From the NCBI GenBank assembly GCA_003567725.1, contig PWYU01000084.1, positions 28,102 through 92,101 of the forward strand: a stretch of 64,000 nucleotides of DNA. Reading direction: 5' to 3'. Position 1 is the first letter of the stretch; each line of letters starts with the position of its first letter. Below are positions 31,501 to 62,853 of the stretch, piece after piece. The translations under genes and the position numbers were made by a program. The DNA comes from Syntrophomonadaceae bacterium (GTDB lineage Bacteria; Bacillota; Dethiobacteria; DTU022). Under the pieces are notes generated by a model that saw nothing but the letters and a program-made list of their open reading frames with translations, was not told the DNA's origin and made no database searches.

Positions 31501-32553
31501 ACTTTATCCCAGGTAGCCAGTGCTGTTCGGGAGTCTTTGGAAGGGATTCCGGTCAGCAGGATTGAAACCGCAGAGGGGATCATGGAAATTGTCCTCGGGT
31601 ATGAAAAACAGGAAATCAATACCCTTGAAGATTTAAGTGAAGTCGGGTTTTATACTGCCGGTGGGGAATTTGTGCGGATCAGCGAAGTGGCCGAACTGGA
31701 AGAAGCTTTTGGGCCCAGAAGCATTCCCCGGGAGAACCGGAGGATCGTCGGCCAGATTGAAGCCAGTTATGGAGATCTTGACCTGGGCACGGCAGCCGAG
31801 GAAGCCTTTGCCGCCCTGGAGCAGATTGCCCTGCCTGACGGCTATACCATTAACACTGCCGGCAGCGTCGTGGTAATGGACGAAGTGCTGGATGAGCTGG
31901 CGCTGATCCTGATTGTTGCCATGGTCCTGGTTTACCTGGTTATGGCCGCCCAGTTTGAATCTCTTTTGCATCCCTTTATTATCATTTTAACTTTACCTAT
32001 GGCTTATGCCGGATCGGTGCTGGCCTTAATGATCACCGGTAACAATATCAGCGTACCGGCGCTGATCGGCTTGATCGTCTTATCGGGTATCCTGGTTAAT
32101 GATGGAATTATCATGGTCGATTATATCAACCAGCAGAGAAGGCTCTATGGGCTGGAGCTAAACCGGGCCATACTGGAAGGGGCGGCCGCCAGACTGCGTC
32201 CAATTATGATGACCACAGCTACCACCGCCCTTGGTCTTTTCCCCCTGGCTTTAGGAATTGGTGAAGGAGCTGAACTGCAGGCCCCGATGGCCATAACCAT
32301 AATTGGAGGACAGTTCACGGGAACCCTTCTTTTACTGCTGGCCGTTCCTGCTATCTATAAAATGGTAACCAGGGAACACCCTGATCAGGGTGCAGCTAAA
32401 GCCGCCCTTGCTTACACCAGCCCTGCCGGGGATGATAGGGGTAAACCCCTGATGAAAATGGTTTTACGAATGGTTATTGTGTTAATCCTGGCCGCCCTTA
32501 TTCTCATACTGTTCAATGTAACCGGCCAGGAAACTTTTATGGTAATTCGGTAA
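28567..32553 (+). CDS. RND (AcrB/HAE-type) efflux permease, unusually long (1328 aa), with a ~300-aa insertion in the first periplasmic loop
   Basis: N-terminal RND signature (MNLAKMAVKRPVATGAILVLILVIGL...DLLPDIEAPVL) and 12-TM pseudo-repeat architecture. No adaptor or OMF gene is adjacent. Confidence 0.8.
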   Translation: MNLAKMAVKRPVATGAILVLILVIGLVSLSQSPLDLLPDIEAPVLAVITALPGSSPQESLELVTRPIEESVSTVGGVTGINSISRENTSLVIVLFDWGADVKNLREDIRMRMDLVDLPDDASRPMILEFDPTLMPIMQISASGADDPARLTAWLQETAAPRLESIRGVAEVQIQGGVEEDIFVRANPKEMAEYEISFGQIASVLRTSLMDLPAGIVDLEYRQVRLRFLGRYAEPELLSDLIVGFKVDQEELDRLIGEEIELDLNRLIEAQDFGFAGSGSGGMGSLPVRELYWDDIFDFNSAVVVGESIILPITDRVAGREDLDLERSMRLFTVNPEITLQAESNYLNLSLSSLGLMPVSVDEAPNDSSFPVKLEQLWLIEYASWDQDQVIVPLDPAALQENNISSAGLTRLAERHPLITQAAPGYILISFHQNWPEIREEPLISIPDLQGLLSDLESGARQGLNEASGGLEDLMIELTTTMLGGNTGGSSTGANPFSGVDLGDDIPVDPVTLGMVAEIEKTQYEPSSFSRYNMQPSIGLSIQKEGDANTVTVARQVREVLDELSEESIGTFSQISFDTIFDQAEEIEFALADLARSLLGGAVLAIVVLLLFLKNWRTTMFIGLSIPSAIIATFTLLYFTDITINLMTLGGLALAAGMLVDNAIVVSENIYRQYQLGENPNDAAIKGAREVAGAITASTLTTISVFFPVVFLSGLAGQLFWEFALTVGCAILASLFMALTVIPLLASRTLQRRHEQGSKLSSLPRLPSYRRALKFTLHRPWLVLLITVIFVAGGALGFTTLGTELFPSPEESSFTVNISLPPGSTLETTDAYVSEIESILEDQPDVANYSVRTGGSGFMGMRGGGGASNEARIRVDLDPAALGEIDRVIEEVRSRADRLPYEAVNTYSSQSVLDTAGFEARLELVVSGDNLEEVTRITGQAADILAEHPRFSDVQSSLEENRPEVHIRLDHSEALQKGVTLSQVASAVRESLEGIPVSRIETAEGIMEIVLGYEKQEINTLEDLSEVGFYTAGGEFVRISEVAELEEAFGPRSIPRENRRIVGQIEASYGDLDLGTAAEEAFAALEQIALPDGYTINTAGSVVVMDEVLDELALILIVAMVLVYLVMAAQFESLLHPFIIILTLPMAYAGSVLALMITGNNISVPALIGLIVLSGILVNDGIIMVDYINQQRRLYGLELNRAILEGAAARLRPIMMTTATTALGLFPLALGIGEGAELQAPMAITIIGGQFTGTLLLLLAVPAIYKMVTREHPDQGAAKAALAYTSPAGDDRGKPLMKMVLRMVIVLILAALILILFNVTGQETFMVIR

Positions 32554-42677: not shown

Positions 42678-45356
42678 TTATACTTTTTCCAGGTTAATGG
42701 CGCAAACTTTTAATTCCGGGATGTTTGCTACCGGGTCCAGCTCGGAGTTGGTGAGCTGATTGGCACACGTTTCAGCAAAATGGAAAGTCATAAACACAAT
42801 GCCTTCCTTTAAGTCCGAAACAGGTTTGACTTCAGCTTCGACTTCACCCCGCCTGGAGGTCAGGCGCACCTTATCGTTTTCATTCAAACCCATGCGTTCT
42901 GCGTCTTCCTTGCTGATCAGAGCTTTTTCTACATTGTAAAGATCACTTAACCCATCTGAACGCCGGGTCATGGTCCCGGTATGGTAATGATAAAGTGATC
43001 TGCCGGTGGTGAGAATGAATGGGTAGTCCTGATCGGGAGTTTCAGCCGGGGGCTTATAATCTACCGGCTTAAACTGGGCTTTGCCGCTGCCTGTCAGGAA
43101 TTTTTCTTCATATAGGATCGGTGTGCCCGGGTGGTTTTCGTCCGGGCAGGGCCAGCATATACCGCCTTCTTCGAGCCTTTCGTAGGTGATACCTTTCCAT
43201 TTTGGGCTAAGTTCTGCAACTTCCTGCATAACTTCGCCAGGTTTTTTGAATTCGAATCCTTTCAAGCCTAATTTAAGGCCCAATTTGCAGAGAATTTCAA
43301 AGTCGCTCCTGGCTTCACCCGGAGGATTGATCGCCTTACGGCCCCGCTGGATCCGCCGCTCAGTGTTGACAAATGTGCCGTCTTTTTCGGCGAAAGAAGC
43401 TGCCGGCAGCACGACATCGGCGTAATCTGCAGTTTCTGTGAAGAAAAGATCCTGAACAACAACCAGCTCCAATTTTTCAAGGGCATCCTTGATTTTGCAG
43501 ATGTCTGGTTCACTGACAACGGGGTTTTCACCCATGATATAAACGCCTTTAATTTTATCTTCCAGCGCAGCTTTAAACATCTTGGTCATGGGCATACCCG
43601 GCTTATCGGGGATCTTAGCGCCGTAAGCTTCAGAGAATTTCTGGTTTGCTTCCGGCGAACTTACCGGTTGATAACCGGGGAAGACGTTGGGCAGTGCGCC
43701 CATATCGCAGGCCCCCTGCACGTTATTCTGGCCGCGCAGCGGATTGACGCCGCCGCCTCTTTTACCCATGTTTCCGGTTAAGGTAGCCAGCCCGGCCAGG
43801 GCTAAGACATTGTCCGTGCCGCTGGTGTGCTGGGTGATGCCCATGGTATAAAGAATGGCAGCCGGGTCGCTTCCAGCGTAAATTCTGGCCGCCTGGGTGA
43901 TCTTTTCCGCCGGAACCCCGGTAATATCGGCCATTTCGTTCAAATCGATAGCACGGATTTTTTCGGCATATTCCTCGAACCCTTCGGTCCGGTTTTTGAT
44001 GAATTCAGCATCGTAAAGCTCCTCATCGATAATTACCCTGGCCATGCCCTGCAGCAGGGCGGCGTTGGTTCCCGGTTTAAGCTGGAGGAATACATCTGCT
44101 TTCTCCGCAATCTTGATCCGCCTGGGATCGGCTACGATCAATTTGGCGCCGTTTTTAACGGCCCGTCTGATCCGGTAGCCAATAACGGGGTGAGTTTCAG
44201 TGGTATTGGAACCGATAATGAAAAAGGCTTTCGCTTCATCAGCGATGTCATCAATACTGTTGGTCATCGCGCCACTGCCAAATGTTGTAGCCAGACCGGC
44301 TACAGTCGGCGCGTGTCAGAGACGGGCGCAGTGATCGACGTTGTTTGTGCCAAGAGCCCGGAAGATCTTTTGAAATAGATAATTTTCTTCATTGGAGCAC
44401 CGGGCAGAGCTGATGGCACCTAGGGCGTCGGCGCCGTGTTTTGCTTTGATATCATGCATTTTGTCAGCAATGAAATCTAAAGCTTCATCCCAGGTAGCTT
44501 CTACAAATATGCCATCTTTTTTGATTTTCGGTTTTTTAAGGCGTTCCGGGTGGTTAATAAAATCAAATCCAAAGCGTCCCTTCACGCATAGATCACCGCG
44601 GTTTACCGGGTTGTCACGGTTTCCGTCCACTTTGATTACACGGTCACCGCGCACCCCTATCTTGACCCCGCAGCCTACTCCGCAGTAGGTGCACACGCTT
44701 TCCACCTCGCGCTCTACTAAGGCTGGTTTGGCCAGGTAGAGGGCACCGGTCGGACAGCGCACCAGGCATTCGCCGCAGGATTCACACTTTGAATCTTTAA
44801 GCGGCTTGTCTCCTAAAACAGAAACCCTGGTGTGGAAACCGCGGAAGGCAAAATCAATGGCCGCGACCCCGTTAATCTCTTCGCAGGTGCGAATGCAGAT
44901 TCCGCATAAAATACAGCGTGTAAAATCGCGGTGGAAAAAAGGATTACTGTCATCTGGTTTGACCGCTTCTACCGAGCGGCGAATTTTGCGCATCCGGTCC
45001 TGGTTAATCCCCACAAAAGCGCTCACTTCCTGCAACCTGCAGCTATTGTTCCGCGAACAGCCCTGGCAGTCCTTGTTATGGCTGGCCAGGATCAGCTCCA
45101 CGTTGGTCAAACGGACTTTACGCACTTCCTCCGTATCAGTCTTGACTATCATACCGTCTTTTACCGGGGCCCGGCAGGCGGTAACAATCTTGCCGTCAGC
45201 ATCGACCATACAAATCCGGCAGCCGCCGAAAGTGGGAAGATCAGGGTGATGGCAGAGGGGGGGGATATAGATGCCCGCTTGTTCCGCTGCTTCAAATACG
45301 GTTATTCCCTTTTCGACTTCAATATCTAAACCGTTAATTGTTATTTTTAGCATCAT
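42678..45356 (-). CDS. fdhA: formate dehydrogenase alpha subunit, selenocysteine-containing (NuoG-like 2Fe-2S/4Fe-4S N-terminus plus Mo-bisPGD catalytic domain); in-frame UGA at 44316..44318
   Basis: The two track ORFs 44316..45356 and 42678..44267 are contiguous in frame across a TGA: ...[31 protein letters not shown]..., which aligns with the E. coli FdhF Sec140 region CARV-U-HGPSVAGL...GNGAMSN. Confidence 0.8.
44270..44318 (-). promoter_or_regulatory. bacterial SECIS element: UGA, 11-nt spacer, then hairpin UGUAGCC-GGUCU-GGCUACA
   Basis: Minus-strand mRNA immediately 3' of the UGA forms a 7-bp stem with a GGUC-containing apical loop at the canonical 11-nt spacing. Confidence 0.55.
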
Positions 45357-47267
45357 TTAACCTTCCTTTCCACTAGCCGCAGCAGCCAGATTTTCTTTTC
45401 CAGTCAGGCGCACCACCGCGCTGAAGCGCTCGGGGCATTCCTGGAAGCAGATGCCACACTTGGTGCATTTGTTCTGATCAATCGTATGCGGCACTTTCTT
45501 TTCGCCGCTAATCGCCTCGACCGGGCAAGCCTTACGACAGCGCCCGCAGGCGGTACATTTTTCTTCATCAATATGAAACACGATCAGGTTCTTGCAAACC
45601 AGCGCCGGGCAGGCATGATCCTTGATATGGGCTTCATACTCGTCTCTAAAGTACTGGATGGTGCTCAAAACCGGGTTGGGCGCTGTCTGGCCCAGCCCAC
45701 AGATGGAACCCTTAATAATTGAATCGCCCATCTCGAGCAGATACTCAATATCACCTTCCCGGCCCCGGCCTTCGCAGATATCATTTAAGATTTCGAGCAT
45801 TTGCTGGGTACCCTGGCGGCAGGGGACACACTGGCCGCAGGATTCTTCGAAGGTAAAGTCAAGGAAGTAGCGGGCCACGTCGACCATGCAGGTAGATTCA
45901 TCGATGACGACCATACCGCCTGAGCCCATCATTGAGCCGGCTTTGACCAGGGTATCGAAATCGACTGCCAGGTGCAGTTTATCCTCTGGCAGGCAACCGC
46001 CGGAGGGACCGCCGGTCTGAACAGCTTTGAACTTTTTATCGTCCAAAATGCCTCCGCCAATTTCATATATTATTTTCTTTAACTCAATACCCATGGGCAC
46101 TTCGATCAATCCGCTGCGGTTGATCTTGCCGGTCAGGGCAAAAACGGCCGTGCCGGGGCTGCCTTCTGTGCCGATACTCTTAAACCAGTCGGCTCCTTTG
46201 CTCAAAACCTGGGGCACCACGGAAAAGGTTTTCACATTATTCAAAAGAGTGGGCTTGCCCCACAGGCCTTCCTCAGTTGTCCTGGGACGCGGCAGGGGCT
46301 TGGGCCAGCCGCGGTTACCTTCGATGGACATAACCAGGGCCGTCGATTCTCCGCAGACAAAAGCGCCTGCGCCTTGAAATATTTCCAGGTCAAAATTAAA
46401 ACCAGTGCCGAGGATATCATCGCCGAGCAGATTTTTTTCTTTGGCCTGAGCAATGGCTTTACGCAGCCGTTTAATAGCTAAAGGATATTCTGCGCGCACG
46501 TAAAAATAGCCTTTTGAAGAACCGATGGTATAACCGGCAATGGTCATGCCCTCGATTACCGAATGGGGATCTCCTTCTAAGACCGAACGGTCCATGAAAG
46601 CCCCGGGGTCGCCCTCGTCAGCATTACAGATTACGTACTTTTGATCGGCCTGGGGTTTTAAGCAAGATTCCCACTTGCGCCCGGCCGGAAAACCAGCGCC
46701 CCCGCGCCCGCGCAGGCCGGAGTCTTTAAGGACACTGATTATATCCTCCTGCTTCATTTCCAGGGCTTCGGCCAATCCTTTGTAGCCGCCGTGGGCAATG
46801 TATTCATTAATATTTTCGGGGTCGATTATACCGCAATTTTTTAAGATTACACGCTGCTGGTTTTTAAAAACATCTCCGGTATCGATCCGCTCCACATCTG
46901 CGGGTCCGCCTTCGCCGAAATAGCCGAGGGCTAAATCGGGCCGGTGGTCGTCTTTAACGAGATAGCTATCCACTATTTCTTCGGCTGTTTCAGGAGTTAC
47001 TCCATGGTAGGAAATACGCGGTTGGCCCGGCTTGATCACATCTAAAAGGACTTCGGCAAAACACATTCCGATACAACCTACTTCTTTGATCTCGGCCTTG
47101 ATGTTTTCTTTTTCCAATTTATCGGTGATAGTTTGAACTACTGACTGGGCTCCGGTGGCATTGCCGCAGGTGGCGCAGCCAACATAAATCTGTGGGATGT
47201 CGCTTTTTTGCTCTTTCTCCAGGTTTTCCAGGGCTTCTTTTTCGATTACATCAAACTTTTGGATCAC
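45357..47267 (-). CDS. NuoF/HndC-like FMN- and NAD(P)H-binding subunit with N-terminal thioredoxin-like 2Fe-2S domain and C-terminal 2x[4Fe-4S] ferredoxin domain (formate dehydrogenase beta / diaphorase subunit)
   Basis: NuoF motifs (RGRGGAGFPAGRKWE, FMN/NADH fold, C-terminal CxxCxxC 4Fe-4S). N-terminal CATCG...CIGMC 2Fe-2S. Two CxxCxxCxxxCP ferredoxin motifs. Confidence 0.8.
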   Translation of the reverse strand: MIQKFDVIEKEALENLEKEQKSDIPQIYVGCATCGNATGAQSVVQTITDKLEKENIKAEIKEVGCIGMCFAEVLLDVIKPGQPRISYHGVTPETAEEIVDSYLVKDDHRPDLALGYFGEGGPADVERIDTGDVFKNQQRVILKNCGIIDPENINEYIAHGGYKGLAEALEMKQEDIISVLKDSGLRGRGGAGFPAGRKWESCLKPQADQKYVICNADEGDPGAFMDRSVLEGDPHSVIEGMTIAGYTIGSSKGYFYVRAEYPLAIKRLRKAIAQAKEKNLLGDDILGTGFNFDLEIFQGAGAFVCGESTALVMSIEGNRGWPKPLPRPRTTEEGLWGKPTLLNNVKTFSVVPQVLSKGADWFKSIGTEGSPGTAVFALTGKINRSGLIEVPMGIELKKIIYEIGGGILDDKKFKAVQTGGPSGGCLPEDKLHLAVDFDTLVKAGSMMGSGGMVVIDESTCMVDVARYFLDFTFEESCGQCVPCRQGTQQMLEILNDICEGRGREGDIEYLLEMGDSIIKGSICGLGQTAPNPVLSTIQYFRDEYEAHIKDHACPALVCKNLIVFHIDEEKCTACGRCRKACPVEAISGEKKVPHTIDQNKCTKCGICFQECPERFSAVVRLTGKENLAAAASGKEG

Positions 47268-52972: not shown

Positions 52973-53094
52973 GTTGCCGGATTGAACCGGGCTTTTTTAC
53001 CTGGCTTTCAGCCCGGTCCTGATGGTCAGTGGTATTGGCCATGGCGGCCCTGTAACGGCAGCTGTCATCAAGATCGAAGTTTAATTGCTGCCCT

Positions 53095-53352
53095 TTATTT
53101 CCGGGGCCTGTAATACAGGCAGGGCAGGCCGGAAGATTGGTAAACTACCCCGGCGGGGGAAAACCTGGTCTTAAACTCCAAAGCCCGGCAGCCCCGGGGG
53201 AAGTTTTTATCCCAGGTAATATAGTAATGGCGGCACTTTAAGCAGTTGATGGTTATTTTCCTGGCTTGCTTATTTTTCAAAACCGCTCCGCCTTTTAAAA
53301 AGATTATTATACCCGGTTCCTGGTGGCCAAACCGCTCCAGGCTTCTCTTCAC
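53095..53352 (-). CDS. small Cys-containing hypothetical protein (85 aa)
   Basis: ORF track only. C-x2-C...C spacing (CLKCRHYY...GCRALEF). Immediately downstream of the PAS-GGDEF-HD-GYP gene on the same strand. Confidence 0.3.
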   Translation of the reverse strand: MKRSLERFGHQEPGIIIFLKGGAVLKNKQARKITINCLKCRHYYITWDKNFPRGCRALEFKTRFSPAGVVYQSSGLPCLYYRPRK

Positions 53353-53576
53353 CTGAATTTCCAGGCCTGCGCTTTATACTCGTTTCAGTTCTCTTCAGCA
53401 GATTTTACTGTATCGTGACAGCAAAGGCCGTGTCGTTAAGGATATTTTTAAAACCGTAATGCCGGCGAGACGGTTCTCTTGGTTTTTTGCCGGATTTTCT
53501 TTTTGCCAGGGTCATAATCGAACTGTTTTCGCAGGCGCTGCCGGCCTGCTTACTTTTCGCTTTAGCGCCGGTTTGA

Positions 53577-56285
53577 TCAAAAAACTTCAAAAAAATGTTC
53601 CAGCAGCTCTGGATCGAGCCTGGTCCCAGCCTGGGTTTTTAACCGGGCAGCAATTTCCGGCCCTGTTTTTTCCTCCTGGCTTTTTGCTCCATGAATAAGA
53701 TCCTGGTAAGCTTCTGCAATGGCCAGGATGCGGCACTCCACCGGTATATCTCTGCCTTTCAGGCCGGAAGGGTAGCCCGAACCGTCCCAGTTTTCATGAT
53801 GGCATAAAATCAGCTCTGCTATCTCAGATAATTCAGGTGAGGCCTGGGCCAGGCGGTAACCTCTTTCAGTATGCTGGCGGATTCTTTCTTTTTCCGGTTC
53901 GCTTAATTGATCTGCCGGCTTATTTAATAATGCCTCTTTAATGGTGACCATGCCGAGTTCACGGACCTGGGCTAAAAGCAGCAAATTGGAAATCTTTTTT
54001 TCATCACGTGAGATTTTACGGCCCAATTTTAAGCAAAGTTCCTGCAGCTTATCATTGTCGGCTTTCAGGTGGCAATCCCTTTCATAAAGGGTTGCCAGAA
54101 GAAATCTGATTATATTCTCCTTGGCATTGCTGCTGTGTTTGAGCTTGTTTTTATACATTAAATCATCGGCGGCCTGGTAGGTCTCTTCCAGGGTTTGACT
54201 GCCGTTTTCGTTGACGGCCAGGCCCAGGGAAATACTCAAGAACAGGCCGGTACTATTTTCGTTATATTCTGCTAAGCGGTTTTCAATTCGCTTGAGCAGC
54301 GCCTCTCCATCTTTGCGGTTGGTTTTAGGAAGGATAAGCACAAATTCATCTCCACCTACCCGGGCTAAGATATCGGCGCTGCGCAAAGAGCTCTTTAAAA
54401 AAGCGGCGCTCCTCTGCAGGTAAAGGTCACCTTCATAATGGCCGATGGCGTCATTGACAAGTTTTAAACCGTCTAAATCGGCTGAAATAATGGCAATGGG
54501 ATAATTGCGTGAATTTTCAAGGCGTTTAAGTTCGTTTACAAAATAATGGCGGTTGTATAAGCCGGTTAGTTGATCATAAAAGCTCAGGCGCCTGATTCGT
54601 TCTTCAGACTGGTGCCTGATCAAGGCATTACTGATCAGTTCAGCGACTACATTCAAGAGGGTAATCTGGTTATCCAGCCAGAATTTTTTTTCTTTAACAG
54701 CATCGAAGCCCAAAAACCCGAAGAGACGGCCGTTTTTTCTAATCGGCACGCATAGAAGAGATTTTATATCCTGATCTTGAAACACTCGTTTTTCTTTTGC
54801 TGCCTCAACAGGAAGATTATCAACATCCGGAATATGGACATAATCATCATGCTTGATTTTTTCCGCCCACCAGGGTAAGGCTTCAAGGTGATGATTCTGG
54901 TTGTTATCTTTTTGAGGGGTGATCCCTGCTGCGCACCATTCATGGGTATTACTCATCAGTTTTCTATCTTCTGAAAAGCGGAACAGGTAGCTGCGATCTA
55001 CTGCAAAAAAAGCGCCGGTTGCCTGCAGGGCATAGTTAATGCCTCTATCCAGGTTTTCAGGAGGCAGGCTGATGAAAAATGAGGAAAGGTTTGAAATCAA
55101 AGTTTCAAAGGCAAATCTTTCATGAGCAATTTTTTCTGCTGCTTTGCGCTCTGTGATATCTCGGGAAATACCGAATATGCCGGTAGGTTCGTCTTCCTGG
55201 TTGCGTAAAAAATGCATTTTTATTTCGGTCCAGATCTTACTGCCGTTTTTGCAATAATGCTCTATTTCCAGTTCTTGAACTCTGTTCCAGGCGTTTTTTT
55301 CATTTTGTTCCAAAGAGACTGCTTTCTGAAAAAGCATTATGGCTTTGTCAAGTGATGCCGGGGTAAGGGTGGTGCTGATATTTTCGCCAATTAATTCTTC
55401 AGGGCTGAATCCAAGCAATTTTTTGACCGAGGGGCTGATGTGGGTATAGGTTAAGTTCATATCACAGGTCCAGACTATATCACTGACGTTTTCAGACAGC
55501 AGGCGGTATTTTTCTTCACTTTTTCTTAAATCCTGTTCCTGTTTTTTCTGGTCCGTCACATCTCTCAGCTGTTCAATAATATGCATTATATTGCCGTTTT
55601 GATCTAAAATCGGGTTGCTGTGGCAGTCTAAATAGAGATCCATTTCGGGGACATATATTTCTACCCTTTCTATTTGCTTGGTTTGCAAGGCCTTCCTGGT
55701 GGCGCACTTTTCGCACTCCCGGTCCCTTCCGATTAATTCGTAACATTTCCTGTTTTTAACCTGCTCCGGACCTAAACCCAGTAAGTTGTAACCGGCCTGG
55801 TTGTAACGCTCAACCGTGTAATCGGGGTACTGGAGCGCTAAAACATCGGGGATAGCATTAAAAATACCTTCGAGCAGCCTGTTTTGGCTGGCCAGCGCTT
55901 CTTCTGTTTCCCTTTGAGCGGTAATATCCCTTACCCACTCTATTATATATTTTACCTCATTATTTTGATCAAGAATGGGAATAACCCTTTGATCAAGCAA
56001 GGTACCATCCTGCAAGCGGGCTTCCTGCTGGAAAGGCTCTTTGGTTTTAAAAACTTCTACCGCCCGGCACTCAGGGCAGATTTGATCAAAGCCCCTGTAG
56101 GTCCGGTAGCATTTGGTTCCAGGCAACCTTTTATCTTCTGCGACGTCCCCAAATCCCTTCCAGTTGCTGTAGATGATCTTCATATCAGGATCCTGGATGG
56201 ATATCAGATCCGGGATCAAATCCAGCAGTTTATCTGAAGACTGCAGTAAAGTTTTAATCAAGCTTTTTTCCGGCTTGCTGTTCAT
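53577..56285 (-). CDS. multidomain c-di-GMP signalling protein: Cys-motif PAS x2, PAS, GAF, GGDEF (RVGGDEF, I-site RSAD), then HD-GYP with HD replaced by RE
   Basis: GGDEF and HHENWDGSGYP motifs are present. The position aligned to HDIGK in the paralog reads VRELGM. Confidence 0.8.
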   Translation of the reverse strand: MNSKPEKSLIKTLLQSSDKLLDLIPDLISIQDPDMKIIYSNWKGFGDVAEDKRLPGTKCYRTYRGFDQICPECRAVEVFKTKEPFQQEARLQDGTLLDQRVIPILDQNNEVKYIIEWVRDITAQRETEEALASQNRLLEGIFNAIPDVLALQYPDYTVERYNQAGYNLLGLGPEQVKNRKCYELIGRDRECEKCATRKALQTKQIERVEIYVPEMDLYLDCHSNPILDQNGNIMHIIEQLRDVTDQKKQEQDLRKSEEKYRLLSENVSDIVWTCDMNLTYTHISPSVKKLLGFSPEELIGENISTTLTPASLDKAIMLFQKAVSLEQNEKNAWNRVQELEIEHYCKNGSKIWTEIKMHFLRNQEDEPTGIFGISRDITERKAAEKIAHERFAFETLISNLSSFFISLPPENLDRGINYALQATGAFFAVDRSYLFRFSEDRKLMSNTHEWCAAGITPQKDNNQNHHLEALPWWAEKIKHDDYVHIPDVDNLPVEAAKEKRVFQDQDIKSLLCVPIRKNGRLFGFLGFDAVKEKKFWLDNQITLLNVVAELISNALIRHQSEERIRRLSFYDQLTGLYNRHYFVNELKRLENSRNYPIAIISADLDGLKLVNDAIGHYEGDLYLQRSAAFLKSSLRSADILARVGGDEFVLILPKTNRKDGEALLKRIENRLAEYNENSTGLFLSISLGLAVNENGSQTLEETYQAADDLMYKNKLKHSSNAKENIIRFLLATLYERDCHLKADNDKLQELCLKLGRKISRDEKKISNLLLLAQVRELGMVTIKEALLNKPADQLSEPEKERIRQHTERGYRLAQASPELSEIAELILCHHENWDGSGYPSGLKGRDIPVECRILAIAEAYQDLIHGAKSQEEKTGPEIAARLKTQAGTRLDPELLEHFFEVF

Positions 56286-56665
56286 ATCTGGCCACCTTAT
56301 CTGTCAAAAAAATCCTGCCGGTCTGGGAGCAGTAAATTAATGTATAAAATTTCCATACTGTTGTCTAAAGCATTATCCTTCTATTGCAAACCCGGCCAGT
56401 TCTCCAAAAATTTATAAATATAGCCCGCATTATTTATGTTAAGAGAAAAATTTACTCCTTATACAAATAGCAGGATTAGGTCAAACAGTCAAGTCTTAAA
56501 GGCCCGGTATCCTGTAAGGTTTTTAAAACAGGGTTAAGGCACGAGTTTTTTTAAATAATATTTGTTAAAATGCCGTCCGGCCTTTAAGATCAAGGGAGCT
56601 GTTTCTTCCGGTTATGCAGGGCCTGACAGGCTTCAACAATTTTTTAAAAAAGCTTCACCCTTAAG

Positions 56666-58879
56666 TTAGAGCCACTCATCTATAACGGGCAAAAACAGTT
56701 CGATCAGCTCTGGATCAAACTGGGTTCCGGAGCAGCTCATGAACTCCGCTTTAATATCACTTTTACTCATGGCCCTTTTGTAAGGCCGGCCGTTGGTCAT
56801 TACTTCAAAAGAATCGGCAATGGCGGTGATGCGGGAAAGCAGGGGAATGTCCCATTCCTTCAATCCTTGCGGGTAGCCCTTGCCGTCCCAGCGTTCATGA
56901 TGGGCCAGAATGTCTTCTGCTACATGTTTAAAATCATCGCTGGCCCAGGCGATGCGAAAGCCAATTTCGGGATGAGTCTTGATTACAGCCCACTCCTGTT
57001 CAGTTAGAGGGCCATTTTTGGTTAAAATCTGCTCGGAAATATTGATTTTCCCAATATCATGCAGAGTAATGAGCAGTTTCAGGCGGCTTTGCTCGGCATC
57101 GGTCAGTTTTAGTTTATGGCCGATTATTTGGCCTACGGCCTGCATGCGCCTGGTATGGGCCTCGGTTTCAAAACTTTTTTCAGCCAGGGTTGTTAACAGG
57201 GTCTGCAAAACGGTGTTTTTCGCGCTGCGGCTCTCTGTCAATTTTCTCCTGTTCAGATTGTTTTCTGCTTCCCGCAGGGTATCAAAAAGAACCCCTGCAG
57301 CTTCTCTTTGCTCCGCCAGTCCCAGGGTTAAAGATAAAGGAACCTCTTCCTTAAACTGTTCTGAACAGGCCTGATCAATGCTTTTGCAAACTTTACTGGC
57401 CTCTTGAAGGCTTGTTTGCGGCATCAAGATTATAAATTCATCGCCGCCCCAGCGGGCAAGGATATCATTTTCCCGGCAGCACTGTTTTAAAATTAAAGCT
57501 GCAGTTTTTAACAATTCATCACCAAAATTGCTGCCGTAAGAATCGTTAATGAGCTTTAAACCGTTTAAATCAGCGATGATAATGCTGATGGGATACTGGT
57601 TTAGCAGGGCGGTATCATTGATTAATTCTTCGAAGTAGTAGCGGTTGTAGAGGCTGGTAAGGCTGTCATGGCGGCTTAAGTGCAGCAGTTCCTGCTCGGT
57701 TTTTTTATGTTCAGTTATGTCGATATGGGTGCCTACGGTAATGTCGGTTAAGCTCCCGTCAGGTTTTTTTAAAGTCTGCCCGCGAGACCAGATCCATACC
57801 CAGTGGCCGTCTTTATGCAGCATTCTGAAAGAATTCTCATACAACCCCGGAGAACCGCTGGTGAGGTAATCTTTAAAACGTTTTGCAGCCTTCTCATTGT
57901 CGCCCTGGTGCATCAGGTCGTTCCAGGTCACTTTAAGATTGGGCCGGCCGTCCATAATGTAATCAGATTGCTTTCGACCCAGCATCTTAAAATATTCCGG
58001 GCTGCACCACAGGTAGCCGGTCTTTCTGTTGTATTCCCAGGCACCGGTATTTGAGACCGTGATAATTGATTTGTAGCGTTCCCAGCTTTCCTTTAAAACA
58101 TCCTCGGTTTCTTTTTGCCTGGTTATATCCTGGGTTATGGCCAGTAAGGAAGTAACCTTGCCATCAGTTCCGTTTCGCTCCGGTATTATCCTGGTAGATA
58201 AGAGCCTGCGGCCTTCTGGTAAAGATAGGAAGCCTTCATGGAGCTGTTCCTTCCCGCTGTTTAAGGATTGCTTTAAAAACTCATGACGGGCTTTGAGCTG
58301 CTCTTTAAGCTCAGGGGTGGGGCTGTTATCTGCCAGGTCCAGAAAAGATTTGCCTTTAAGTTGGTCAAAGGGAATACCAAACAGGCGCTCTAAGGCTTTG
58401 TTAATATAAAGATGTTTAAGCCTGCTGTTAAAACGAGCGATTAACAGGGGCAGGTTATCCATAATTGCAGCAAGTTCGGCTTCAGGGTTTACGTCCGTAC
58501 AGGCTTCTTTTTGCTTTGCCATATCATGCAGGTAAAGGGTGATAAGATCTGGTTCATGGACGTAAGCCGCAATTTCATACCAGCAGTGGGTTGATTGGTT
58601 GTATTTGACCATCCGGGTGTTTTCACCTACATTTTTTAACTGGCTGTATATGCTGAACCATTCAATTTGCAAGCCTTGAGTGATAAAAGGACAGTCTCTA
58701 ACCGATTTACCGACAAGATCTGCTTCAGAAAGCCCGCTGATATTTTCAAAAGCAGGGTTTACATATACAAAAATATAGTCAACGGGATTACCGCTGTCAC
58801 CACGCACCACCATCTGCTGAGCAAAAGCTTTTTCCGAATGAGTATGTAATTGTTTTTGCTGTTTATCTCGGCCGGGCAT
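56666..58879 (-). CDS. PAS x3-GGDEF-HD-GYP bifunctional c-di-GMP cyclase/phosphodiesterase (all catalytic motifs intact)
   Basis: RWGGDEF with REND I-site; HDIGK; HHERWDGKGYP. Confidence 0.8.
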   Translation of the reverse strand: MPGRDKQQKQLHTHSEKAFAQQMVVRGDSGNPVDYIFVYVNPAFENISGLSEADLVGKSVRDCPFITQGLQIEWFSIYSQLKNVGENTRMVKYNQSTHCWYEIAAYVHEPDLITLYLHDMAKQKEACTDVNPEAELAAIMDNLPLLIARFNSRLKHLYINKALERLFGIPFDQLKGKSFLDLADNSPTPELKEQLKARHEFLKQSLNSGKEQLHEGFLSLPEGRRLLSTRIIPERNGTDGKVTSLLAITQDITRQKETEDVLKESWERYKSIITVSNTGAWEYNRKTGYLWCSPEYFKMLGRKQSDYIMDGRPNLKVTWNDLMHQGDNEKAAKRFKDYLTSGSPGLYENSFRMLHKDGHWVWIWSRGQTLKKPDGSLTDITVGTHIDITEHKKTEQELLHLSRHDSLTSLYNRYYFEELINDTALLNQYPISIIIADLNGLKLINDSYGSNFGDELLKTAALILKQCCRENDILARWGGDEFIILMPQTSLQEASKVCKSIDQACSEQFKEEVPLSLTLGLAEQREAAGVLFDTLREAENNLNRRKLTESRSAKNTVLQTLLTTLAEKSFETEAHTRRMQAVGQIIGHKLKLTDAEQSRLKLLITLHDIGKINISEQILTKNGPLTEQEWAVIKTHPEIGFRIAWASDDFKHVAEDILAHHERWDGKGYPQGLKEWDIPLLSRITAIADSFEVMTNGRPYKRAMSKSDIKAEFMSCSGTQFDPELIELFLPVIDEWL

Positions 58880-59221
58880 TTAAAATATCCTCTCGCTTAC
58901 AGGTTTGCTGATAGATTCCTGGAGTTATCTTTGTCCTTTAAGCCGAAATTGCTCAAATTTGTTATTTATAATTACTACAAAAACACCTTAATTCCTGCCA
59001 GCTTATAGCTGTTCTTTTAAAATTGCTTTTTATAAAAATATTTAAAACATGATAAAATAATCAAAATCAGCCCTGCTGGGGATCTATTTTGGAATGAATT
59101 GTGCTAATATTAAAATATCTAATTGCTTGCTGTTTTATGCCGCCCTGTAAGATTGATCTGTTTTGAAATTTTAGTTTTGCCTGTTCCTTTCTTATCTTTT
59201 ATTTACAAGGAGGTTTAATTT

Positions 59222-60205
59222 ATGGACAGTACTTTACAAGTGGAACTTAAGTGTTCACGGCCCGAAGTAGAGGGGTTTCAGGATTACTTTGAAAAGGCAA
59301 TGTACCCCTCTTTAATGGAAATGGAAGAAAACCGGGTGGAAGCCCAAAAAAAATCTAATAGAAACGCATTATTAGCCCTTATTCCCCTTCTTCTGGCTAT
59401 TGCCGCTTTTTTTGCCCTGGGCTTTAGCATCCGGGAAGATGCTTTAGCTTTCTTTTCTGTTGGAGCTTTATACATCATTGTGGCCTGTATTTTTATAGCC
59501 AGGCCCATGCGCAAAGTGGGAACAGATATTAAAACTTTTCTGATGGATAGCATCTGCTCTTTTTTGAAAGTAGATTACAGCGCTACCGATAAAGACTTTC
59601 CTTTCAAGGTCTTTAAAGATGCAGGCCTGCTGCCGGGGCATGATGACAGAGCTTTAAAAGATCATGTCTATGGCATTTATAAAAAAATCGCTTTTAATTT
59701 AGTTGAATGTCACCTTTTTAAAACCCAAACCCATGGCAGCAGTGATAGCACCAGTACCAGCTCAGAAACAGTTTATCACGGCATCTTGATAACCATTGAT
59801 TACCCTGATCCCATTACGGGAAAAACCCTGATCAGCGGTGACTCCGGCATGTTCAGGAACTTCTTTAAAGGCCTTTTTCACGGTCAAAAGATCGAACTGG
59901 GGCATTCGGGCCTTGACGATCATTATTTGATCCATACTTCCGACGAAGAAGAAGCCCGAAAGCTGCTCTCCCCGCGCCGGGTTGAAAAGATCATGGCCCT
60001 GGTAGAGCACATCGGTCCCTGTGCCCTGGAAATGGCTTTTATGGACGGCTACCTCCTGCTGTCCGTCAGGATTGATCACAGCCATTTTGCAGTAACCTCC
60101 CATAACCCGGCCACCTGTACCCGGACTGTGGGCTATATTGTCCAGGAAATATGCATTATCTTTGATCTCATCGATATCCTAGGTTTTGAAGAAAAAACGG
60201 CCTGA
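59222..60205 (+). CDS. hypothetical membrane protein (two N-terminal TM helices plus large C-terminal domain; DUF3137-like architecture)
   Basis: ORF follows an AT-rich promoter-like spacer and an AAGGAGG RBS. The family assignment is from remembered architecture only. Confidence 0.45.
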   Translation: MDSTLQVELKCSRPEVEGFQDYFEKAMYPSLMEMEENRVEAQKKSNRNALLALIPLLLAIAAFFALGFSIREDALAFFSVGALYIIVACIFIARPMRKVGTDIKTFLMDSICSFLKVDYSATDKDFPFKVFKDAGLLPGHDDRALKDHVYGIYKKIAFNLVECHLFKTQTHGSSDSTSTSSETVYHGILITIDYPDPITGKTLISGDSGMFRNFFKGLFHGQKIELGHSGLDDHYLIHTSDEEEARKLLSPRRVEKIMALVEHIGPCALEMAFMDGYLLLSVRIDHSHFAVTSHNPATCTRTVGYIVQEICIIFDLIDILGFEEKTA

Positions 60206-60297
60206 GGCGCTTTTATGGTTTAACCCTGTACCCTTTATAGCCAGTAGGCCAAAAGTGAAAAAGTCACGAATACTTGTTGCCGCTGTAACTGCACCGG

Positions 60298-60334
60298 TTT
60301 AGCTTTAAGCTTTTCGCCCGGGCCTGCCCTTTTG
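60298..60334 (+). repeat. second copy of the 37-nt hairpin element seen at 1349..1385 (stem GGUUUA/UAAGCU with compensatory changes)
   Basis: AACTGCACCGGTTTAGCTTTAAGCTTTTCGCCCGGGC versus AACTGTACCGGCTTAGCTTTAAGCCTTTCGCCCGCGC. Confidence 0.4.
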
Positions 60335-60483
60335 GTAAGCTCATCTTAAGCTCTTTTCCGGTGGCCGGCTTCCTGACAACAAGACCGTTTTAGGTTTCGC
60401 TTTACCGGTGTCTTAAGGCCTTTATTTATGCTCGCTTCAGTAATCTTCAAGCAGGCTTTCAGCACCAACAGGCGAAGCAGGTG

Positions 60484-61214
60484 ATGGAAGCGGTCCATGA
60501 AATGCAATTGCAAACAGAAGAAGTGCTTCTCATACTGCCTGGCGAAAACGACGGTTTTTGAAGTAAACCGCTTGATTGAAGCTTTAAATGCTGCAGGAAT
60601 TGATTTTTTCGGAGGTATTTTTCCCGGTATTATATATGATGAAGCGAGATATGACAGTGGAATGATTCTGACTACATAAAGCGCTCCGGCCAAACCCTGC
60701 ATCATCAAGGGATTTTACTTCAGTAGATGAGATTATCCCTGCCATAGAAGATTTACGGGCAGCTGAACAGCTACCGGGATGGTTGTTAAATCTTATTGCG
60801 CCTGGGTGAGCTGGGCATTCTCAAGCTTTATTATCACGATCAAAAAAAGCTTAAACGACCTGGAAGCGATCCATTATGAAGACAGAGCCGCCGTTGCACA
60901 AAGCCTATGCCCGCTACATGATCAATGGAATTTTAAACCAGGAGTTCAGGATAACCCGTCCTGATAATGAGATAAAGTGGGTCTGGGCCCGTTCATTTCC
61001 CGTTAAGGACGATGCCGGCGAGACGATCAGTCATACCGGAATAGTGGTCGATGTTACCGCACGCAAAGAAACGGAGCTGGAGCTGGAACTATCCAGGGAA
61101 AAAGCCGAAGAGGCCAACCGGGCTAAAAGGCAATTTATGGCTAATATGTCTCACGAAATAAGGACTCCTTTCAGCGGTATTTTAAATCTGGCAGGATTAA
61201 ATGCCGGCGGATAG
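60484..61214 (+). pseudogene. decayed sensor histidine kinase (FIST-like N-terminal fragment, PAS/PAC, HisKA H-box MSHEIRTP): at least two frameshifts and truncation before the ATPase domain
   Basis: Three adjacent track ORFs in different frames (60497..60679, 60779..60964, 60876..61214) together read as one PAS-HisKA protein. The last ends 15 aa after the H-box. Confidence 0.5.
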
Positions 61215-61350
61215 AATATACTATCTAGGTAGTTACTGACGTTTAATAGTGTGCTGGCCTTAAATACTGGCTTCTAAGGAACGGTATTAACGCTTCAAAT
61301 CTTTACTTAAACGACAGCATGAATCGGCATTAATAAATAAGGAGTTTTTT

Positions 61351-61716
61351 ATGGGCCGGGAAGAAGAAAAAGAACAATTGATCATCGACAAACTGCCGGA
61401 AGGTTTCGAGCCCCTGGGTAAAGCCTGGAAAATGAACCCGAACAGGCTGCGCGCCATCGAGAGAGGCAGACTGGTGCGCTTCAATAATCTTTATGAAGCT
61501 GCAATGGGTGCCATCAACAAGGTTGCCGCTTCAGCCATTCAGAGTGTTTTCGACCTTGGCGATATCATTTATTTTATGCCCCGCAATAGGCCGCTTAAGA
61601 ACCTTGAGGTCATCGAACTTTATGCGGCCCGGGTTGGTTCCCTGCTGGCCAGGCTTGAAGCGGAAAAAGAAGCTGAAGTAAGCCGGGATCAGGCGCAGTA
61701 TAAGCGCTGCCATTAA
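61351..61716 (+). CDS. hypothetical protein (121 aa)
   Basis: Strong AAGGAG RBS 8 nt upstream. No family recognised. Confidence 0.45.
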   Translation: MGREEEKEQLIIDKLPEGFEPLGKAWKMNPNRLRAIERGRLVRFNNLYEAAMGAINKVAASAIQSVFDLGDIIYFMPRNRPLKNLEVIELYAARVGSLLARLEAEKEAEVSRDQAQYKRCH

Positions 61717-61738
61717 AAAAAACAAACCCTGGAGTATA

Positions 61739-61897
61739 GAATACCGCATTCTTGCCATCGCTAAAGCTTATTTGGATTTAACTAAAGAGGGCCTTCACCG
61801 CCGGGCCCCGGATCATCACCAGGCCCTTGCCGAGATCAAAAAAGAGGCCGGTACCCGCTTTGACCCGGCTTTAACGGAAACTTTCAGCGAACTCTAA
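61739..61897 (+). pseudogene. orphan C-terminal tail of an HD-GYP domain (EYRILAIAKAYLDLTKEG...FDPALTETFSEL), no upstream domain
   Basis: Translation in a frame different from 61351..61716 aligns with the C-terminus of the 53577..56285 protein (ILAIAEAYQDL...LDPELLEHF). Confidence 0.4.
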
Positions 61898-61981
61898 AAG
61901 CTTCCGGTGAAAGGTAGTTTGCTTTCAAGGTTTGCTTAACCGCTCATGGAGCGGTAAAATATAAAAACGAGGTGTTATAAA

Positions 61982-62287
61982 ATGAAAAAAGAAATTCCTG
62001 AGTTTATCAAAGCCTATGATAACCGTGACAACCCTCTCTATGAAGCAGTTGTTAAAGTTTCTGAGACTGCTTTTGCCGGAGATGCATTGGATCACAAGAC
62101 AAAACTGCTCATTGCCCTGGCGCTTGATGCTGTGCTGGGCTCAGATCACGGCGTTGCTTCTCTGGCCAGGCAGATCCGGTCGGTCGGCGGTACTGATGCA
62201 GAAATAAACGACGCTCTCCGGGTGGCTTACTATGTGGCCGGTATGAACACTCTGGTTTGCGGAAATGCCGCTTTTGAAGGCGAGTAA
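61982..62287 (+). CDS. carboxymuconolactone decarboxylase (AhpD-like) family protein
   Basis: Size and helical pattern (KTKLLIALALDAVLG..H) resemble the CMD family. GAGGTG RBS. Moderate support only. Confidence 0.4.
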   Translation: MKKEIPEFIKAYDNRDNPLYEAVVKVSETAFAGDALDHKTKLLIALALDAVLGSDHGVASLARQIRSVGGTDAEINDALRVAYYVAGMNTLVCGNAAFEGE

Positions 62288-62592
62288 ATGATAAGCGGCG
62301 CCGCAGAAAAAATTTTCTTTTACCCCTTAATCAACTTCAGCCCCTGCCGATAACAGCTATAAGAGTTAATATAGCTGTTATATCACCGGAAAGGAGCATC
62401 TGGGCTATCAGCGTAATCAGCAAAGTATATCTCTTTAATGCCTACCGCAAGCAAAAAGGTGAATCAGTCGGCTCCGGTCAAAAGCCCGGTTCTGCCGAAG
62501 AACGCCCGCCTGCCAGTTCTAACCGGCCCAAGGTTGAAAAATTTAGCACCGCTGAAAAAACCTCTGCCCGCATTTTTGAGCTGAGCCGTTAC

Positions 62593-62853
62593 ATGAATGA
62601 TGGTGGAGGTTCGTCTGAGCTGATTAAAGTCGCTAAAGACGCTCTCGATGAAATCGACTCCGTTCTCCAGGAAATGCGCTCTTTATCCGAGCATGCGGCC
62701 GGTGATAAGATGACTCCTTTTGAGCGATCAATGGCCCAGAATTCGATTGACGGTTACATCGCTGAAATCGATCGCATTGCCACTGAAGCAGAATTAAAAG
62801 CGGCCCGCCTGCAAAATGCTTCCCGCCCCGGCCCCCGTGAACCGTTGCATTAA
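62593..62853 (+). CDS. flagellin N-terminal (D1 helix)-like fragment, probably a gene remnant
   Basis: ALDEIDSVLQEMRSLSEHAAGDKMTPFERSMAQNSIDGYIAEIDRIATEAE parallels the flagellin ALNEINDILQRMRELAVQAANGTNS..DRDSIQAEIDQLTEEIDRIANQTEFNG. No RBS, and no N-terminal D0 or C-terminal segments. Confidence 0.3.
   Translation: MNDGGGSSELIKVAKDALDEIDSVLQEMRSLSEHAAGDKMTPFERSMAQNSIDGYIAEIDRIATEAELKAARLQNASRPGPREPLH

Follow-up and report, generated by a model that had tools for sequence, protein, structure and literature searches.

Two adjacent genes on the minus strand of contig PWYU01000084.1, from a Syntrophomonadaceae bacterium (assembly GCA_003567725.1), encode multidomain proteins that combine a GGDEF domain, associated with the synthesis of cyclic di-GMP (c-di-GMP), with an HD-GYP domain of the phosphodiesterase type. 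We analyzed them within a 64,000-nucleotide stretch of this contig (positions 28,102 to 92,101; the whole stretch is called the window, and its own numbering is used), and refer to them throughout as P1 (53577-56285(-), 902 amino acids) and P2 (56666-58879(-), 737 amino acids). The list of open reading frames (ORFs) placed both genes exactly where a first-pass annotation of this DNA had put them. That annotation had called P1 the upstream copy; read along the minus strand that encodes both, P1 comes after P2 and is thus the downstream one, separated from P2 in the direction of transcription by a spacer of 380 bp. Combining the ORF list with profile matches gave the order PAS(3-Cys)-PAS(4-Cys)-PAS-GAF-GGDEF-degenerate HD-GYP for P1 (Pfam) and PAS-PAS-PAS-GGDEF-HD-GYP, with all motifs canonical, for P2 (Pfam/NCBIfam). 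The PAS, GGDEF and HD-GYP content first described was thereby confirmed, while the third PAS domain and the GAF domain of P1 had been missed.

In P1, the first two PAS domains, recognized by Pfam as two PAS_4/PAS_9 stretches, occupy 55896..56243 (PAS1, residues ~15-130) and 55536..55877 (PAS2, residues ~137-250) on the minus strand, as do all features of the two genes. They are followed by PAS3 (55131..55511; PAS_9/PAS/PAS_3 matches, residues 259-379), which has no Cys motif, a GAF domain (54621..55031; PF01590 E = 1.2e-11, residues 419-555), the GGDEF domain (54129..54590; PF00990 E = 6.7e-36, residues 569-718) and the degenerate HD-GYP domain (53580..54119; HD_5/HD, residues 736-894, E = 7e-30). 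P2 has three PAS-like stretches, a GGDEF domain at residues 403-548 and an HD_5/HD match at residues 565-725. The GGDEF domains of both proteins were intact at the level of motifs, as had been proposed (PF00990 E = 7e-36 in P1 and 1e-31 in P2). The RxxD inhibitory site (I-site) stands exactly five residues before GGDEF in each, reading RSADILARVGGDEF in P1 (RSAD and GGDEF at 54342-54383) and RENDILARWGGDEF in P2 (REND and GGDEF at 57434-57475), and both carry the DxLTGLxNR and DxDxxKxxND motifs, which appear as DQLTGLYNR and ADLDGLKLVND in the alignment of P1 to solved cyclases. From these motifs we infer that P1 and P2 would be diguanylate cyclases subject to product inhibition, each fused to an HD-GYP domain.

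The HD-GYP domains of the two proteins differ sharply. We mapped both onto PmGH, a GAF-HD-GYP phosphodiesterase of Persephonella marina (PDB 4MCW/4MDZ), using its metal ligands E185, H189, H221, D222, H250, H276, H277 and D305, its catalytic D183 and K225, and its substrate contacts R314 and K317 (PMC4159591). P2 matched every defining residue (E, H, HD, K, H, HH-E, GYP, D and RPYK), keeping all eight metal ligands and K225, and its motifs LHDIGK (57047-57064), HHERWDGKGYP (56870-56902) and GRPYK (56777-56791) were all intact, as first annotated. In P1, the HMMER alignment to 4MCW set VRELGM (53949-53966) under MHDIGK with RE exactly below HD, and the MAFFT and BLASTP alignments also put R775-E776 in the HD columns, so the RE pair is homologous to the HD dyad. 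The degeneracy noted at this dyad is thus real, but the damage extends far wider, with five of the eight ligand positions altered (E185 to H739, H189 to D743, H221 to R775, D222 to E776 and D305 to E858) and the catalytic Lys K225 replaced by M779. Further changes affect D308 (Q861), R314 (A867), Y316 (S869) and K317 (Q870); the D305 and D308 changes lie in AIAEAYQD (53700-53723), and the RPYK segment is lost from HGAKSQEE (53670-53693), where AKSQ replaces it, consistent with the altered RPY region reported earlier. P1 shares with PmGH its fold, D183 (D737), H250 (H805), H276/H277 (H829/H830), E278 and GYP, and it retains HHENWDGSGYP (53769-53801). The segment ERDCH of P1 was also considered as the equivalent of ETxxH (E185/H189) and was ruled out, BLASTP and MAFFT both placing H739 and D743 at these positions. 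In PmGH, the substitutions H189A, H221A, D222A and K225A each abolish activity (PMC4159591). Because positions at which Ala substitution inactivates PmGH are changed in P1, it is a safe inference that the P1 HD-GYP domain would lack phosphodiesterase activity, which strengthens the earlier prediction of catalytic impairment.

Despite these losses, the domain keeps its fold. Its HD_5 match spans profile positions 10-170 of 170 (E = 7e-30), and an AlphaFold2 (AF2) model was confident (predicted local distance difference test score, pLDDT, 89.5; predicted template-modeling score, pTM, 0.86), its weak parts being the N-terminal linker helices (model blocks 1-30) and otherwise only the former RPY loop. 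The top Foldseek matches were PA4781, PmGH and DvhD, with template-modeling (TM) scores of 0.82, 0.81 and 0.76, respectively. Database proteins P0001 and P0002 are 100% and 88% identical to P1. Compared with the 88% ortholog, the P1 domain contained no frameshifts or stops, and the ratio of nonsynonymous to synonymous substitution rates (dN/dS, Nei-Gojobori) was 0.24 over residues 723-842 and 0.52 over residues 843-902, against 0.19 for the P2 HD-GYP domain by the same method; the C-terminal 60 residues were 73% identical to the ortholog versus 88% for the whole protein. On these sequence comparisons, the P1 HD-GYP domain appears to be under purifying selection.

A neighbor-joining tree of 72 HD-GYP domains placed P1 in a single clade of degenerate domains with the dyads YD, YN, HN, AD and RE. 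H189 is lost throughout this clade, and HHExxDGxGYP is invariant in all of it. P1 falls in a subgroup in which K225 is Met (P0042, P0003, P0018/19 and P1; dyads HD, YN or RE), and in the sister group the dyad is YD and the D305 position holds Ile, Val or Ser. Among the 72 aligned domains, the RE dyad itself was confined to P1 and its 88% ortholog. Since P1 belongs to a clade of variously degenerate domains, the change from HD to RE would be a late step in an already non-catalytic domain. PA2572 is a YN-GYP inactive HD-GYP protein, and its YN variant is also seen in the P1 relatives P0018/P0019. Other inactive precedents are HnoD (SE) and ECA3548 (HT) (Galperin and Chou, bioRxiv 10.1101/2021.11.05.467447). 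In all three, as in P1, a domain with a degenerate HD dyad is kept, there for regulation or protein-protein interaction; they differ in being REC- or PilZ-linked, whereas the P1 domain is fused behind an apparently active GGDEF domain. In itself, the impaired HD-GYP domain of P1 is ordinary, adding one more case to the pseudo-HD-GYP domains already known as a class.

The sensor half of P1 proved more unusual. PAS1 contains CYRTYRGFDQICPEC (residues 59-73, C59-x10-C70-x2-C73, at 56067-56111) and PAS2 contains CYELIGRDRECEKC (residues 181-194, C181-x9-C191-x2-C194, at 55704-55745), the only motifs of this type in a sensor protein within the window. A C-x(9-12)-C-x2-C motif had been described for each of the two domains; the motifs are indeed present, with spacings of x10/x2 and x9/x2, but a fourth conserved Cys of PAS2, C221 (55623-55625), had been overlooked. 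Among the 120 best P1 homologs, C-x8-13-C-x2-C was found in 96 PAS segments, all in register, and 19 proteins carried the PAS1-PAS2 cassette with the two domains ~122 residues apart, all six Cys and C221 being invariant (19/19). We then searched a PAS2 profile exhaustively against 1.84 billion representatives of 50%-identity clusters, which brought up 664 proteins at E<=1e-30, a number that rose to 9,546 at E<=1e-10. In the 152 highest-scoring domains, drawn from these representatives and the P1 homologs, the four cysteines (C1 to C4) were present in 152, 151, 151 and 143 cases, respectively, and neighboring positions were more variable (the residue at +2 of C1 is Glu in 122/152), so the cysteines are near-invariant among relatives. 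More distant PAS domains (30-60 bits) retained C1, C2 and C3 in 108, 92 and 111 of 115 cases, with C4 replaced by Leu, Val or Ile. The outputs joined to the Cys-bearing PAS (Cys-PAS) domains were histidine kinases, GGDEF, GGDEF-HD-GYP and, in one case, a sigma-54 activator, and the domains were found in Methanocalculus, Desulfonatronospira, Desulfobulbus and metagenome-assembled genomes (MAGs) of Bacillota. The sigma-54 activator is P0263 (989 amino acids; from the representative search, outside the window), an enhancer-binding protein with a 4-Cys PAS2-type domain (CYELIGRDRECDGC) and a second C-x10-C-x2-C PAS directly before its AAA+ domain, which ties the Cys-PAS family to the protein class of the iron-sulfur (Fe-S) sensor OrpR.

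Both the PAS_4/PAS_9 profile matches and the AF2 fold identify the two domains as PAS. In the AF2 model of the tandem (pLDDT 87), C1 lies at the start of Ealpha, C2 and C3 at the N terminus of Falpha and C4 on Hbeta, all elements that line the PAS cofactor pocket. Foldseek matched the tandem to DosP, FixL, MmoS and NifL. Sequence and profile searches of the PDB and Foldseek with the cassette returned generic PAS matches, none bearing the motif, and we found no solved or characterized relative of the Cys-PAS among them; a large PAS survey mentions Fe-S sites of the NreB type only (PMC10468136). A c-type heme PAS (CxxCH) was rejected because no His follows CxxC, the next residue being R, A, P, K or Q in this set.

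Two known Fe-S PAS sensors offer precedents. OrpR, a sigma-54 activator of Desulfovibrio vulgaris, has an O2-/redox-labile [4Fe-4S] cluster, the cysteines C52, C61 and C65, and a conserved acidic residue at +2 of the first Cys (PMC8359166), and NreB carries a [4Fe-4S] cluster in Staphylococcus carnosus and, in Bacillus licheniformis, a three-Cys [2Fe-2S] cluster bearing a labile sulfur ligand and an open fourth site (PMC13478379). Like OrpR, the Cys-PAS domains have three conserved Cys at about positions 50-65 of the PAS and occur in anaerobes; the acidic residue (D/E54 in OrpR) is paralleled by the Glu of the PAS2-type domains, and the P1-type PAS of P0263 sits in a sigma-54 activator, as OrpR itself is one. 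The likeness to NreB is that the Cys cluster precedes Falpha, within the loop/helix region. The S. carnosus NreB motif is C59-x2-C62-x11-C74-x2-C77, and its x11 and x2 spacings resemble those seen here. The spacing otherwise differs, being C-x8-C-x3-C in OrpR versus C-x9-11-C-x2-C here (compared via the described Cys positions), and B. licheniformis NreB is ordered CxxC-x11-C where P1 has C-x9-10-C-xx-C. No NreB-named chain appeared among the PDB sequence matches, even with the cassette profile at E<=10. The earlier suggestion of a metal or Fe-S redox sensor remains plausible and has gained from the Cys conservation and from these precedents, although the domains show no similarity to a solved PAS bearing the motif. 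A mode of action like that of OrpR or NreB is, in our estimate, the most likely reading, with slightly under an even chance for an Fe-S cofactor specifically.

P1 and P2 had been described as tandem paralogs, and they are adjacent and paralogous, but they share only 37% identity over 344 amino acids of the GGDEF-HD-GYP region and no significant similarity between their sensor halves (BLASTP), and their HD-GYP domains fall in separate clades of the 72-domain tree. The closer relatives of each are found in other organisms and not next door. Because each protein is closer to proteins elsewhere than to its neighbor, the sequences indicate that the two are ancient paralogs; a recent tandem duplication is ruled out by the 37% identity and the different clades. 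The arrangement is nevertheless maintained in GCA_036681025.1, where a 737-amino-acid and a 902-amino-acid gene are adjacent on one contig and are flanked as here, by CMD on one side and acetyltransferase/CN-hydrolase genes on the other, the P1 ortholog being 88% identical and of equal length. Among GTDB species genomes, no P1 ortholog closer than 40% identity was found.

Taken together, we consider it reasonably probable that P1 is a multi-input diguanylate cyclase with a pseudo-enzyme HD-GYP domain at its C terminus, which would neither hydrolyze c-di-GMP nor bind it at the canonical site, that its PAS Cys clusters most likely coordinate a metal ion or an Fe-S cluster, and that P2 stands apart from it as a canonical GGDEF-HD-GYP protein. 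For the P1 cyclase, the HD-GYP domain may be retained as a structural, dimerization or partner-interaction module. In RpfG, contacts between HD-GYP and GGDEF domains run through the GYP motif. PAS1-PAS2 would form a mobile cassette with a Cys cluster at the Ealpha/Falpha edge of each PAS pocket, made up of three Cys in PAS1 and of four in PAS2, the fourth one on strand Hbeta. Through these clusters, as in OrpR and NreB, the cyclase might be informed of redox state, of oxygen or of a small sulfur/iron ligand. P2 could supply the phosphodiesterase activity absent from P1.

Several points weigh against this proposal. The position that we take, by eye, to be PleD R446, the Arg that contacts the phosphate of guanosine triphosphate (GTP), appears to be Ser in both P1 and P2, and cyclase activity is therefore a prediction from the motifs. 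The dN/dS values come from one pairwise comparison. The Cys spacing is unlike both OrpR (x8/x3) and NreB (CxxC-x11-C), and no similarity to NreB was detected, so the Cys-PAS domains are assigned to neither family; moreover, their three or four Cys could equally be structural Zn ligands or a thiol/disulfide switch. Finally, four of the five changed ligand positions still hold His, Asp or Glu (H739, D743, E776 and E858), so that a remodeled mono- or binuclear site is possible. A site of this kind, formed by E776, H805, H829, H830, E858 and D743 and capable of residual or altered hydrolysis, for example of pGpG or another nucleotide, is in keeping with the intact G-site ligands H250, H276 and H277 (H805, H829 and H830 in P1), and HD-GYP metal sites are known to be heterogeneous, bi- versus trinuclear (PMC4159591). 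Yet P1 has Arg and Met at positions where the PmGH variants H221A and K225A are each inactive, the 88% ortholog has Tyr in place of H739, and among clade relatives D305 is Ile, Val or Ser and H221 is Tyr. Because the relatives vary at D305 and H221, the metal site is not conserved within the clade, and we regard such an activity as very unlikely. Simple decay of the domain, with no retained role and a coincidental pairing with P2, is the least probable of the readings considered: the divergent last 60 residues (73% identity, dN/dS 0.52) and a truly decayed P1-like tail 5 kb away are in keeping with it, whereas the absence of frameshifts and stops, the equal length of the ortholog, the dN/dS of 0.24 over residues 723-842, the invariance of HHExxDGxGYP across the degenerate clade, the confident AF2 model and the synteny of the pair in GCA_036681025.1 all speak for maintenance.

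It had also been suggested that the impaired domain senses c-di-GMP, and a precedent exists in DvhD of D. vulgaris (PDB 9RBZ/9RC0), whose SQ-type HD-GYP domain binds c-di-GMP without metal at a Kd of ~0.1 uM through a canonical site made of K582 (the GK Lys), R650, Y652 and R653 (R-x-Y-R), the GYP Tyr and the hydrophobic clamps L577 and M646 (PMC13090378). P1 could in this way be a receptor for the product of its own GGDEF domain: like DvhD it has a folded non-catalytic HD-GYP domain in a signaling protein (TM 0.76), it is under purifying selection, and it keeps the GYP Tyr, which touches the phosphodiester in DvhD and PmGH. However, K582, R650, Y652, R653, the GYP Tyr, L577 and M646 correspond to M779, A867, S869, Q870, Y838, V774 and L863, and P1 thus lacks the two basic residues that bind phosphate in the DvhD site as well as the Tyr that stacks on the base, the PmGH contacts R314 and K317 being lost at the same positions. 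DvhD has lost HH and kept the Lys and R-x-Y-R, whereas P1 has kept HH and lost the Lys and the whole R-P-Y-K; DvhD is, besides, a dCache-PAS-HD-GYP membrane receptor without a GGDEF domain, unlike P1. The former RPY loop, AKSQEE in P1 and VNGQEG in the 88% ortholog, is unconserved even at this distance and lies in the region of highest dN/dS (0.52), and a canonical RxxD I-site is already available for product sensing. Since the DvhD-type binding residues are missing, the sensor suggestion is not supported, and we consider it quite unlikely. A reading of the PAS Cys clusters as sites for structural or regulatory Zn(II), or as a thiol/disulfide switch, with no Fe-S cluster, deserves more weight but still seems rather unlikely. 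A CPxC knuckle with a distal Cys is a common Zn-site pattern, the four Cys of PAS2 give the classic Zn(Cys)4 count, and the spacing, as said, fits neither Fe-S precedent; Zn-regulated PAS domains do exist, as in WalK (cited in PMC10468136). Set against this, the named homologs are largely from strict anaerobes (Methanocalculus, Desulfonatronospira, Desulfobulbus and anaerobic Bacillota MAGs), and the PAS1 type has three Cys with no invariant His, Asp or Glu partner nearby, like the open-site clusters of OrpR and NreB. The Zn site of WalK, for its part, uses His, Asp and Glu, not Cys.

In the tree of HD-GYP domains, the YD sister clade of P1 comprises seven GAF-GGDEF-HD-GYP proteins (P0006, P0008, P0009, P0023, P0024, P0026 and P0083), which keep the GK Lys throughout and RPY or RSY in 6/7. 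Because GK and RPY are retained, these proteins would, judged by their residues, be better candidates than P1 for DvhD-like c-di-GMP receptors.

The first-pass annotation had also noted an orphan HD-GYP tail and taken it for a third decayed paralog. The tail is real: a remnant at 61736..61897(+), encoding IEYRILAIAKAYLDL...GTRFDPALTETFSEL, covers the C-terminal ~55 residues of a P1-like domain (HD_5 positions 120-170, E = 1e-7) and shares 41% identity with the tail of P1 (E = 9e-10). In it IAKAY replaces IADxF, the D305 position being Lys, and RPY is missing; no coding frame was found upstream of it. It is the remnant of a P1-like gene and sits beside unrelated sensor fragments, namely a truncated histidine-kinase fragment at 60876..61214(+) that matches the C terminus of PAS_3 and the start of HisKA. 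Together with a DUF3137 gene (59222-60205(+)) and an unassigned 121-amino-acid ORF (61351-61716), both fragments fall in a 2.8 kb stretch (59146-61922) that is absent from a closely related contig, L081, where ~117 bp take its place (blastn segments 79-94% identical). Whether by insertion here or by deletion in the relative, this stretch is a graveyard of sensor-gene fragments, more than the site of a third paralog. Further along, an 86-amino-acid ORF at 62593-62853(+) aligns with the flagellin N-terminal profile over positions 68-128 only, and the related contig has a 158-amino-acid gene in its place; it looks like a truncated flagellin-like gene.

Regarding expression, an Rfam scan of the window found no family and hence no c-di-GMP riboswitch, and promoter and terminator scans of 53000-62500 gave site counts not above shuffled expectation. 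The spacer just upstream of the P1 start does contain a promoter-like site (56367-56339(-)) and a weak hairpin with a T-run (56332-56315(-)), in a region whose site counts, as said, do not exceed those of shuffled sequence. Near the pair, at 42678-47267(-), lie genes for NuoE-like (2Fe-2S thioredoxin-like), NuoF-like (Complex1_51K) and NuoG-like proteins and a molybdopterin oxidoreductase, a set that looks like the NAD-linked formate dehydrogenase of an anaerobe and that adjoins the pair in both related contigs too. Elsewhere in the window, a 1328-amino-acid AcrB/RND-type transporter ORF (28567-32553(+)), with the better of its two ACR_tran stretches at residues 508-1267 (profile 251-1020 of 1021), exceeds the Pfam profile of 1,021 positions by ~300 residues, and may contain additional sequence or have its start set too far upstream.

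Anaerobes commonly encode GGDEF-HD-GYP hybrids, of which hardly any has been investigated. The two genes here form a matched pair supplied by nature, in which both catalytic domains of P2 are canonical while P1 still maintains an HD-GYP domain from which catalysis and the known nucleotide contacts are gone, and the locus thus provides a clean system for the role of a pseudo-HD-GYP domain beside a cyclase. The Cys-PAS matters more than the pseudo-HD-GYP domain, the 4-Cys form alone comprising 664 50%-identity clusters at E<=1e-30, and the cassette is apparently a conserved, widespread and uncharacterized variant of the cofactor-binding PAS. We tentatively propose, as a possibility somewhat short of even odds, that the C-x9-11-C-x2-C PAS domains are a large, undescribed Fe-S or metal-thiolate sensor family of anaerobes, that PAS1(3-Cys)-PAS2(4-Cys) is a mobile two-cluster redox cassette that bacteria and methanogenic archaea combine with c-di-GMP cyclases, with histidine kinases and with sigma-54 activators, and that c-di-GMP synthesis by P1 is redox- or sulfide-dependent, with the dead HD-GYP domain as a signal-transmitting scaffold. 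If Fe-S binding holds true, this would be a third type of Fe-S PAS, far more widespread than NreB and OrpR, and it would reveal to which input many orphan kinases and cyclases respond in anaerobic bacteria and in methanogens.

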